From the NCBI RefSeq assembly GCF_988243305.1, contig NZ_OZ547136.1: 64,000 nucleotides of DNA; one strand, given 5' to 3'. A program made the position numbers. This document shows positions 42,301 to 48,300 of this stretch, one piece after another (position 1 is the stretch's first letter; each line of letters begins with the position of its first letter).

Positions 42301-45300
42301 GGTGATAACCAATTGCTGATCGGCAATGAGACATTTACGGATAAGATTCTGTCCGCATCTGAACCTGGTGACTTGCTATAATTATAAGCAATATTTAAAT
42401 AAATCCCATGTACACTCGTATTATAGCCGACCTGATACAAGGTATCTTTATTATTCGTATTCCAGTAAGTTTGTTGACTTGCCGCCAAATACATAGAGCC
42501 ATATTCGCCCAATGGTTGCGATATATTTGCCTGAAACTTTCCTCTTTTGCTATAACGTAAATTATAAAAATCATTCCAGTTATAAACATAGTCTTTTTCA
42601 TTAAGGGTATCTGGATCGATAACCGTACCCGACATTTGTTTGTATGTGGTATCACTCAACGAATAAAATCCCTCCGTCGAATAGCGATAACCAATAATCT
42701 GAAAAGCCGTACCTGTCTGCACTAACGATTTTGAATATAGGAAACGGTACGATTGCCCTTGATGTTTACTGCCATCGGCAAGCGTGCTATTGGCTTGCGT
42801 TAAATCAAATGACGTCGCACCAAACATACCAAGGTTGAACCCAAGCCCGAGTGCTATTGCCCGATAATTATTTGAGTATTGCATCCCTCCGTAGGCGGTA
42901 ATATCCCAGGGTAACCCCCAAATCAAATCTCCTTGAAAGACATTCGGACTGTTTTGATTATAGCTATTGCTACGATATTTACCGGCAGTTGCCGAATATT
43001 TAATATGCCCTTCGCGTTGAAGAATGGGAACAGCGGCGTAAGGAATAGTATAGATAGTTTCGGAATTATCAGACTCTTTGATCGTAACTTCCAAATCCCC
43101 AGCGGAAGACGTAGGGTTCAGATCGTTGATTTCAAAGGGTCCCGGTGGAGTATATGTCTGATAAATAACATAGCCATTTTGTTTGATCGTTACCTGAGCA
43201 TTGCTTTTAGCAATACCGCGCACAGTGGGGGCAAAACCACTTTGGCTATCGGGTAGCATGTTTTCATCGGATTCAAGTTTAGCACCACGAATACTCACAC
43301 TGTCGAAAACATCCGATGAAGACCAGGTACTGATGAATCCCCTAATGATTTTGGTAAAAATCATTAAGTTAAGGTAGATACACATCTTGTCATATGATCA
43401 AATGGTTTCGCCAAAAATCAATAATCAGACAACAAGATGTGCGAACTCGATATTTTACACGACTCTCTTTACCAATTCTGCCCCGAATTACACTTAAAAC
43501 GACTCAACAGCTTAACGTTGGCTTGCCACGCATTACTTGACTGTAAAACTCTCACTCTTACCGAACTTGGCCGTAACCTGCCAACCAAAGCGAGAACAAA
43601 ACATAACATCAAACGAATCGACCGATTGTTAGGTAATCGTCACCTCCACAAAGAGCGACTCGCTGTATACCGTTGGCATGCTAGCTTTATCTGTTCGGGC
43701 AATACGATGCCCATTGTACTTGTTGACTGGTCTGATATTCGTGAGCAAAAACGACTTATGGTATTGCGAGCTTCAGTCGCACTACACGGTCGTTCTGTTA
43801 CTCTTTATGAGAAAGCGTTCCCGCTTTCAGAGCAATGTTCAAAGAAAGCTCATGACCAATTTCTAGCCGACCTTGCGAGCATTCTACCGAGTAACACCAC
43901 ACCGCTCATTGTCAGTGATGCTGGCTTTAAAGTGCCATGGTATAAATCCGTTGAGAAGCTGGGTTGGTACTGGTTAAGTCGAGTAAGAGGAAAAGTACAA
44001 TATGCAGACCTAGGAGCGGAAAACTGGAAACCTATCAGCAACTTACATGATATGTCATCTAGTCACTCAAAGACTTTAGGCTATAAGAGGCTGACTAAAA
44101 GCAATCCAATCTCATGCCAAATTCTATTGTATAAATCTCGCTCTAAAGGCCGAAAAAATCAGCGCTCGACACGGACTCATTGTCACCACCCGTCACCTAA
44201 AATCTACTCAGCGTCGGCAAAGGAGCCATGGGTTCTAGCAACTAACTTACCTGTTGAAATTCGAACACCCAAACAACTTGTTAATATCTATTCGAAGCGA
44301 ATGCAGATTGAAGAAACCTTCCGAGACTTGAAAAGTCCTGCCTACGGACTAGGCCTACGCCATAGCCGAACGAGCAGCTCAGAGCGTTTTGATATCATGC
44401 TGCTAATCGCCCTGATGCTTCAACTAACATGTTGGCTTGCGGGCGTTCATGCTCAGAAACAAGGTTGGGACAAGCACTTCCAGGCTAACACAGTGAACCG
44501 CCCCGGGTTTCCTGGAGAGTGTTTTATCTGTGAACTCAGGCTGCCAGATCATCGTTTCCGATGGAAGCATAATAAGCTTTTTCTGCTTCTGCCGGAGGAG
44601 TATGGCCCAGCCTTTCCAGCAATCGTCGATTGTTATACCAGTCCACCCACGTGAGTGTGGCCAGTTCCACTTCTGCACGGTTTTTCCAGCTCTTACGGTG
44701 TATTACCTCCGCTTTGTAAAGACCATTGATGCTCTCCGCCATCGCGTTGTCATACGAGTCGCCTGTACTTCCTGTTGATGCCAGTAATCCGGCTTCCTTA
44801 AGCCGCTGTGTGTAGGCCAGCGATACATACTGAGAACCTTTATCACTGTGATGGACCGTGCCGGACGGTCGACGGGCCCATAACGCCTGCTCCAGTGCAT
44901 CCAGCACGAATGTCGTTTCCATGGACGATGAGACCCGCCACCCCACGATGTATCCGGCAAACACATCAATGATGAACGCCACATAGACGAAGCCCCGCCA
45001 TGTGCTGACGTAAGTAAAATCAGCCACCCACAGCTGGTCAGGTCGTTCTGCCACGAACTGACGGTTTACGCGGTCGCCTGCGGCAACGGCTTTCCGGCTG
45101 ATGGTCGTACGGACCTTTTTACCCCGGAGAACACCGGCAAGTCCCATAACCGCCATGAGACGTGCCACAGTGCATCTGGCCACTCTGATACCTTCCCGTA
45201 ACAACTGACGCCAGACTTTACGCACACCGTATACCTTGTGATTTTCATCGTATACGCGCTGTATCTCTTTCTTCAGCCAGTCATCGCGCTGCGCACGGGC

Positions 45301-48300
45301 ACTGCGTTTATCCGGATGATGTCGCTGTTGCTGACAGTGGTAATACGTTGACGGGGCAATATGCAGTTCGCTGCATAGCGGTCCGACCCCGTACTGCTCA
45401 CGCAGCTTATCCAGCAGTGGCATCATTTTTTCCAGAGGCGGTCGAACTCCGCCTTCGCAAAATAAGCGGAAGCCTGGCGAAGGATATCGTTACTGCGGCG
45501 CAGTTCACGATTTTCACGTTCCAGCTCTTTCAGACGCTGACGTTCAGCGGTGGTGAGCCCTCCATCACCGCCCCCGGTATCCCGCTCATGCTGGCGAACC
45601 CAGACACGCAGAGTCTCCGGCGTACAGCCAATCTTTGGAGCAATGGAACAAATTGTCGCCCATTGTGAGTCATATTCGCTCTGACTTTCCAGAACCATAC
45701 GGACTGCCCGTTGACGGACTTCGGGGGAAAAACGAGTATTTTTAGTCATCCTGTTTACCTCTTTCTCAGGAAGTTTAGTCTCCAGGATTCCCGGGGCGGT
45801 TCACAGTCAGAAATCGAAACGTACTCTCAACAGTTCGCTTAGGCATGGAAGTTTTGCGGCATTCTGGCTACACAATAACAAGGGAAGACTTACTCGTGGC
45901 TGCAACCCTACTAGCTCAAAATTTATTCACACATGGTTACGCTTTGGGGAAATTATGAGGGGATCTCTCAGGACCAGGTATCACCTAGTGTTAATTCACT
46001 TTTAAAAGGAATAATTACTCGTTGTAACGTACTACTCACATGTGCAATTTTACCCGGTGAATTACCTGAACGACTCCATGTAGAATAATCACGAAAACGC
46101 CACGCCCCTAAATTTAAACCTGAACGGAGATTTAAATAATAACTATCAGACGCATAGTCTCCACGATCACTGTTGCCAGAAAAATCATAATTAATAAGAA
46201 TGGCCGGGATACCATTATCCCATTCCTCAGGTGGAATATAACCACGGGCTTCATGCTTTAATATTGCCTGCGGAAAGGTCAGTTTGAGTCGTTGCGCATC
46301 CAGTTCAGGAGTGTATTGAACTTCTGCGAACCATATACGTAAATCGAGACAATTATTTCCCTCTGCTTGCGCCTGTTCCGGCAATGCACTTTTGTTAATT
46401 CCTAAAGTAACTAACTCATCGAGCGAAAAACAGGGGATCAACTGATTCTGCTCATCAGCTTTGAAAGTAACCTTACGTGATGTCAAAGGCGAATCATTGA
46501 CCCATATTTCAACCTCATAACTACCAGGTAGATATGTCATCCCTTTCTCAAAACGAGATAAATCAGCAACAGCTTCTGTATCACCCGACAGGAATGCAGG
46601 GTTAAAGCGCATACCCGCCACTGAACACGCAGGCAAAAGTGTCAGTAGAAGCAGCATACACCACCTCATCTGCTTCTGCCTTGCCATCCTGTGTTCGAGT
46701 TTTCTGAGCTTTAGGTTCATATCCCTGACCTGAGTTGCTTTAACGTTTTAATCTTCCAGGTTTATTGCATCGTTCCCTTTTGCCTGGCCGTTGTGGCACC
46801 GTAATCATTGATAGTTTGATAAGTAATTTCACCGGCTAACGTCACTGGTGAAGACACTGTTACGTCACTTTTCGGTGGAACAAACGCATTAGGTAATTTT
46901 GCCCCTTGCACCCTGATTCCAGTCACCGTCAGATAATAGGGAGAAGGGTTAATGACTCTCAGCTGTTTACCTTCGTATTTAAATCGCAGCATATCCCGTG
47001 CTTTACCAGCTTGAACGGGTAAATTAGTCGGACGGTAAAATAATTTAATTCTGTTTTGTAACGCCAGTTGTAACGTGTTTTTCTGGGTATTCTTCTCATC
47101 CGTTGGCGGAATCGCTTTCACATTCATCCAGAATAATGTTTCGCGATCAGTCGGTAACTGTGATTTACCAATAAACATTATCCTCAATGAGGCTTCTTTT
47201 CGCGTTGGTAACATAAATAAAGGAGGCGTAACCACAAAATCCTGACTTTTTTTACTGCTTTGATTGTCATCAATCCATGACTGGATTAAATAGCTGGTGT
47301 TAGCCCCACCATTCTGTACACTTAGCGTAATTTGCTGACTGTCAGATGGATAAACCAGACGCGTAGAACCAAGACCGAAGCCACCCGCAGCAATAGCATT
47401 GATAGATATGGCGGATAGTAAAAATAGAGCACCGGCCCTTATGATATATTGGGTCTTCAGCAAAGAATTAATGTTTCTATTCGAAAAACATTTATTTTTT
47501 GAAATCCATCTCATACTGCATCCTTGTAGATGAAATTAATTGTAATTACTGATGCATGTCTATTTATTACAAATAAACATGTAATATTAATTTCAGGTTA
47601 CAAGTAACTGTAACCTGAAATTATCTTGCTGTAATTATTCGTACAGCACGACGAAACTTGCCGTTGATTTCACCAGACCTGGTGCAACGGTACTACCGTT
47701 CTGAGCATAGCCCGCGGTAAATGCCGCAGTAAAATCATGAGTGGCTGCATCGCCAGGAATCACGTAGGCTGCTGAAGAACTACTCCCCTGGGGAGTTTGT
47801 GTGTTCAGCTTAATCAGGCCATCAGTTGTCGTGTTTTTAGAATAAATACGAATCCCTACACCCGTAGCTCCCGCTTCGCCAGTACCATCAGCATCAGCAG
47901 CTCCTTCCACTTCATTGGCAAGCGTCTGGTTGGCACCGTCTGCTACGCCAGTAAAACGAAATTCAATATTTTGACTGTCCGTATTGCTACAATCAGTCAA
48001 TTTAATGTTGAAGTCAGTCTGGTTACTGGCACCCGTTGCTTCGGTATCAATGCCCGTGAAAGCGTTAGAAGGTACGACTGGCAGTACCACTTCAATCTGT
48101 TTCGATTCTGTAGCAACCTTACACGTCGCTTTAACCACACGACCAGTAAAGCGGATGTTTCCGCCCATCGCATCGGTGTTGCTATCCATATCGGTGAGTT
48201 TTGGATAATCAACGGTGCTCCAGTCTGTATCCGCACCACCAAATTGTGATGCATCGCCTGGCGCAGCGGTTACCGCAGTTGACATCAGCATACCTGATGC

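Follow-up and report, generated by a model that had tools for sequence, protein, structure and literature searches.

An IS629 copy nested in an IS10-right-type element splits an auf-type fimbrial usher gene

How a chromosomal fimbrial usher gene came to be split by 2642 bp of mobile DNA, and in which order the pieces of that DNA arrived, is the question raised by positions 43330-45971 of a 64,000-nucleotide stretch of contig NZ_OZ547136.1 (assembly GCF_988243305.1), the whole of which is called the window below. The best overall explanation, and one that we consider very probable, is that two successive and ordinary transposition events inactivated the gene. In the first, an IS10-right-type insertion sequence, moving by cut-and-paste with a 9-bp staggered cut, would have entered the usher at about codon 250 and duplicated GACCAGGTA. 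In the second, a Shigella-type IS629, whose OrfAB would be made by −1 frameshifting, would have entered nucleotides 1162-1164 of this IS10 in the opposite orientation and duplicated CAG. The outcome is a split usher, with a pilus that would not be assembled, and an IS10 whose transposase is cut at residue 353 of 402 and which keeps both of its ends and the antisense RNA known as RNA-OUT.

We recomputed the coordinates of the outer element from the sequence of 43200-46100, read directly. The element opens with CTGATGAATCCCCTAATGATTTT at 43330 and closes at 45971 with CTGAGAGATCCCCTCATAATTTCCCC in reverse complement; apart from these two, nothing in the window matches the IS10-end pattern, for which 0.06 matches would be expected by chance, and each end occurs once. 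Both characteristic ends of IS10 are present, the outside end reading CTGATGAATCCCC... and the inside end CTGAGAGATCCCC.... Directly flanking them at 43321-43329 and 45972-45980 is a 9-bp direct repeat, GACCAGGTA, which the preliminary description of this locus did not contain. Excision of 44494-45806 (1310 + 3 bp) leaves a 1329-bp IS10 (1164 + 165 bp) with a 402-amino-acid (aa) open reading frame (ORF), and this rebuilt element matches an uninterrupted IS10 of E. coli 18SZHZ655Rt from end to end, at 100% identity and without gaps. Because the rebuilt sequence is a base-perfect intact IS10, CAG was single in the target. Excision of 43330-45980 likewise yields an 863-aa usher ORF that agrees at 862 of 863 residues with the intact usher of E. 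coli JNEC-KY178, in which the empty site reads ...GATGAAGACCAGGTATCACC... and holds GACCAGGTA once. Since the intact IS10 has a single CAG and the empty usher site a single GACCAGGTA, both repeats are genuine target-site duplications. The outer features are as follows.

43321-43329, unstranded: left 9-bp target duplication, GACCAGGTA, made by IS10 in the usher (same 9-mer at 45972-45980; single at the JNEC-KY178 empty site)
43330-44493, plus strand: left segment of IS10, nucleotides 1-1164, with the outside end, the RNA-OUT region, transposase codons 1-352 and base 1 of codon 353
45807-45971, plus strand: right segment of IS10, nucleotides 1165-1329, from the rest of codon 353 to the stop codon and the inside end
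45972-45980, unstranded: right 9-bp duplication, GACCAGGTA, by the same comparison
43375-43444, minus strand: RNA-OUT antisense RNA (Rfam RF00240), reading toward the outside end and the usher's 3′ portion

On sequence grounds the outer element is an IS10-right-type copy of the IS4 family. As IS10 reference we used the classical Tn10 on R100, whose copies were assigned by gene neighbourhood, IS10-left adjoining gltS/jemA and IS10-right adjoining tetD. The rebuilt element differs from IS10-right of R100 at 3 of 1329 positions (99.77% identity) and from IS10-left at 14 (98.95%), and the 402-aa transposase that it encodes has the same amino acid sequence as the R100 IS10-right protein, with four residues that differ from the IS10-left protein. 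This protein belongs to the IS4 transposase family (NCBIfam, 404 bits), and RNA-OUT is full length, matching model positions 1-70 of 70 at 99.5 bits. Element naming rests here on author-annotated copies on pCP301 and R100 together with labels from the NCBI Prokaryotic Genome Annotation Pipeline (PGAP), which calls this IS10 type 'ISVsa5 family'. The target GACCAGGTA (43321-43329) fits only two of the six specified positions of NGCTNAGCN, the IS10 hotspot consensus, and we accordingly regard this as a non-hotspot insertion. A simple sigma-70 promoter scan gave nothing at the IS10 outside end and is uninformative for pIN and pOUT; the RNA-OUT match and the identity of the sequence with IS10 lead us to expect both.

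The inner element is delimited by inverted copies of TGAACCGCCCCGGG, one at 44494 (plus strand) and the other at 45803 (minus strand), which gives a length of 1310 bp. Its termini are TG...CA, and its terminal inverted repeats are imperfect and about 25 bp long, with 23 of the first 25 positions matching. We rejected a third end-like match at 49888, with two mismatches, as chance level and not an end. Removal of the element together with one copy of CAG restores IS10, and its parts are listed here.

44491-44493, unstranded: left CAG duplication made by IS629 (IS10 nucleotides 1162-1164)
44494-45803, minus strand: IS629 of the IS3 family, complete, 1310 bp, with transposase genes opposite to the IS10 transposase
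45804-45806, unstranded: right CAG duplication, by the same comparison
45423-45749, minus strand: IS629 orfA, 108 aa (ORF list; NCBIfam IS3 transposase profile, positions 1-86)
44536-45426, minus strand: IS629 orfB, 296 aa, the DDE catalytic part (NCBIfam IS3 transposase, 314.6 bits, positions 93-369 of 369)
45352-45468, minus strand: ALIL frameshift-stimulating pseudoknot (Rfam RF01497, 120.2 bits, positions 1-117 of 117)

The ALIL pseudoknot spans the A6 slip site TGGAAAAAATGA at the overlap of orfA and orfB, the overlap sequence being TGGAAAAAATGATG. Over its 1310 bp the inner element is 99.2% identical to the author-annotated IS629 ORF1/ORF2 of Shigella flexneri pCP301, compared with 96.1% to the copy on pO157 of strain Sakai and 96.2% to a copy that PGAP labels IS1203 family; from this difference between 99.2% and about 96% we identify it as a Shigella-type IS629 isoform. 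IS1203 and IS3411 are isoforms of IS629, whose sub-types lie 4-5% apart and whose target duplications are 3-4 bp long (PMC3271280), and the inner element would correspond to 'sub-type II' of that study. Copies that are 100% identical over 1310 bp occur at many unrelated E. coli chromosomal and plasmid loci; at ≥99% identity, a copy is present in 1298 records. In two other genomes PGAP annotates the identical DNA as an intact programmed-frameshift transposase (WP_151327001.1). The inner IS629 thus appears intact, and it looks fully functional, an activity suggested by the identical copies at so many different sites.

Up to this point the preliminary description holds up well. It had called the IS10 ends intact, and both were found at 43330 and 45971; it had named the outer element IS10, a name borne out by the close match to R100 IS10-right, the identical transposase and the full-length RNA-OUT. 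It had described a 1310-bp, IS629-like IS3-family element that appeared intact, in agreement with the pCP301 identity, the 108-aa and 296-aa ORFs, the slip site, the pseudoknot and the annotation of identical DNA. The CAG triplets that it placed at 44491-44493 and 45804-45806 are a true duplication of a triplet that intact IS10 has once, and its size sum is reproduced exactly (1329 + 1310 + 3 = 2642).

What the insertion did to the IS10 transposase can be read to the base. IS629 splits IS10 at nucleotide 1164 (44493), after base 1 of codon 353; the earlier placement of the break after codon 352 was therefore right about the interruption but not about its exact point, which lies one base into the next codon. 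The hybrid codon 353 is GTG, so that the native Val353 is kept, and 52 unrelated residues follow to complete a 405-aa ORF.

43437-44654, plus strand: chimeric truncated transposase ORF, 405 aa, made of IS10 transposase residues 1-353 and 52 residues read through the IS629 end

The truncated product covers positions 1-299 of the 340-position NCBIfam IS4 transposase profile, as against 1-337 for the rebuilt 402-aa protein, and we conclude from this shortfall that a conserved C-terminal segment is missing. Upstream of the break are the DDE residues of IS10 transposase, D97, D161 and E292. Synapsis by the related Tn5 transposase requires that protein's C-terminus; a literature search for direct evidence that the C-terminus of IS10 transposase is required gave nothing usable. 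Transposase activity is likely to have been lost, and the disabled copy would probably move only with transposase from another IS10, in line with its earlier description as non-autonomous. Because both ends and RNA-OUT are intact, this copy should be mobilisable in trans, and its antisense RNA would still be made.

The order of events had been taken as readable from the nesting. IS10 first is the most parsimonious order, and we favour it strongly, but the certainty attached to it was overstated, since the composite could have moved as a unit. IS629 might have entered an IS10 elsewhere, for example in a plasmid-borne Tn10, after which another IS10 would have provided, in trans, the transposase for the 2642-bp composite to move into the usher. 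We judge this reverse order improbable. It would produce the same end structure as the preferred order (intact IS10 ends, the 9-bp duplication and the internal 3-bp duplication), and IS629 within Tn10-borne IS10 exists in other strains, which provides potential donor composites; three such composites, however, have different junctions, and the inner junction seen here was absent from 5,426 complete E. coli genomes, from the GTDB species representatives and from the JGI metagenomes. IS10 transposition frequency drops with element length, and the transposase is reported to act preferentially in cis (Morisato et al. 1983), a preference that is strong. Because of this cis preference and length dependence, insertion of IS629 in situ is likelier than movement of a defective 2.6-kb composite.

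The searches behind these statements covered both junctions. A 120-bp query across the outer junction had no match covering ≥80% of its length in the complete genomes, and a 120-bp query across the inner junction had no contiguous match in the same set; two records that reached ≥80% of the inner query were discarded, their matches being separated pieces that span 210 and 603 bp and form no contiguous junction. The exact 27-mer of the inner junction gave 0 matches in both the GTDB species representatives and the JGI metagenomes. Exact-protein look-ups returned no record for the 405-aa chimeric transposase, for the 250-aa N-terminal or for the 635-aa C-terminal usher fragment. In the complete genomes the 6.2-kb region is matched over 57% of its length at best, an extent that corresponds to the empty site. 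A usher labelled 'pefC' that carries an uninterrupted IS10 was considered as an intermediate and rejected, as usher, site and orientation all differ.

Several points weigh against the explanation by two successive insertions with IS10 first. None of the complete E. coli genomes has IS10 alone at the usher site, a result that speaks for the reverse order; with no such intermediate and no second copy of the inner junction found, neither order is directly confirmed. Both element names derive from the author-annotated pCP301 and R100 copies and from PGAP labels, not from ISfinder entries. The simple sigma-70 scan missed pIN and pOUT, and the loss of IS10 transposase activity is deduced from the missing conserved C-terminus.

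Other nestings of the same two families bear on whether chance suffices to explain this one. In EC21GDE043 the same IS629 isoform lies in a Tn10 IS10 at about nucleotide 762 (locus 6763-8072), where only a 2-bp duplication (GC) is unambiguous, as the IS629 tip TGA matches the target sequence. In 23CRST009 an IS1203-type copy occupies nucleotides 364-366 of a Tn10 IS10 (locus 1867-3176), and in EC11 the same isoform as here sits at about nucleotide 1255 (locus ~3755-5064). Lying at other IS10 positions and within Tn10, none of the three is the same composite. Nor are CE-O153H30 and MSHS 133, in which the nesting order is reversed and an intact IS10 lies inside an IS629-like element (loci 1503-4150 and 1501-4148); there the IS629-like halves overlap by 9 bp (nucleotides 1114-1122), as expected for an IS10 target duplication.

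The complete E. coli genomes hold about 6,550 IS10 ends, amounting to some 0.03% of 28 Gb, and 31,117 IS629-like places. Random insertion would then give about 10 nestings, a crude expectation in that the places are not independent events, against 3-4 seen, and with fewer nestings than expected we see no sign of IS629 targeting IS10. It is very unlikely that IS629 prefers IS10 or Tn10-borne IS10 as a target, in a bias that would disarm it, or that a disabled IS10 persists here for a regulatory role of RNA-OUT or an outward promoter. Were such a role real, it might consist in trans-repression of other IS10 copies or in transcription of the distal auf genes.

An assembly artefact, in which repeat copies of IS10 and IS629 were wrongly joined and the nesting is unreal, has next to no probability: both elements are multi-copy in E. 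coli and of a class prone to mis-joins, but a mis-join would not set a complete 1310-bp element at its inverted-repeat tips with a 3-bp duplication, leave an IS10 that excision restores base-perfect, and yield matching 9-bp repeats on either side of the insert in a usher that is intact apart from it.

The gene entered by IS10 encodes the 863-aa usher of a chaperone-usher operon whose seven genes lie on the minus strand, between glpD (36467-37987, plus strand) and glgP (48824-51271, minus strand). The genes run in the order major subunit, chaperone, usher, two minor subunits, second chaperone and adhesin, and published work puts the auf operon, with the same arrangement of seven genes, in the glpD..glgP region (PMC12928451). 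The usher now consists of two fragments.

45972-46720, minus strand: 5′ fragment of the usher, approximately codons 1-250 of 863 (NCBIfam usher profiles, N-terminal part)
41478-43329, minus strand: 3′ fragment of the usher, approximately codons 248-863 (NCBIfam PRK15193 usher, 851 bits, positions 266-877)

The orientation of IS10 makes RNA-OUT and pOUT read outward past its outside end, codirectionally with the 3′ fragment and the distal genes, and transcription from pOUT might extend outward into the distal auf genes. On the same strand, a 635-aa ORF (41478-43385) takes its start codon, an ATG at 43385, from the IS10 outside end and begins with 18 IS10-derived codons; it is best regarded as a mechanical fusion, which annotation pipelines could mis-call as a gene.

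Further observations concern the surroundings of the usher. The same gene is broken by ISEc31, a different IS3-family element, in E. coli CH4796 (NZ_CM166348.1), an independent insertion. The fimbrial island (38400-48800) is AT-rich, with a GC content of about 0.40 compared with about 0.52 in its flanks, a composition consistent with horizontal acquisition of the auf-type island. An Rfam match to the small RNA ES036 (CssrF) at 38073-38115 on the minus strand (43.6 bits, gathering threshold 37.6) lies in the spacer that separates glpD from the last fimbrial gene.

IS10 and IS629 are familiar elements, nesting of insertion sequences is common, and what we describe is ordinary mobile-element biology; all that is new is a pair of strain-specific junctions and a further inactivated fimbrial operon. 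The nested insertion explains the auf-type usher pseudogene of the strain studied, and outside annotation its importance is small. As a textbook case of nested insertion sequences it is clean, with both target duplications kept, and it adds one case to several independent IS629/IS10 nestings whose frequency is compatible with chance. The two junctions, absent from the complete genomes searched, could serve as markers of the lineage for polymerase chain reaction (PCR) or typing.

Set beside known systems, the outer element resembles the IS10-right of Tn10 in its 1329 bp, both end sequences, 402-aa transposase, 9-bp duplication and full-length RNA-OUT, and differs from it as a solo chromosomal copy outside Tn10 with a transposase gene broken at codon 353. 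The inner element agrees with IS629, including the isoforms IS1203 and IS3411, in its length of 1310 bp, its ends, the sizes of orfA and orfB, the A6 slip site with ALIL and the 3-bp duplication; from the O157 Sakai pO157 and IS1203-labelled copies it is set apart by an identity of only about 96%, being of Shigella type instead. The five other E. coli nestings share with this one the two element families and the precision of the ends, and are unlike it in position (IS10 nucleotides ~762, 364-366 and ~1255, versus 1162-1164 here) or, in two of the five, in having the opposite nesting. Whereas the composites of EC21GDE043, 23CRST009 and EC11 are borne on Tn10, this one is a solo IS10 within a fimbrial usher. 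The operon around it, finally, is like the auf operon (aufABCDEFG) of extraintestinal pathogenic E. coli in its position between glpD and glgP and in its seven-gene layout, the two features from which alone the name is assigned, and unlike it in having an usher split by nested elements.

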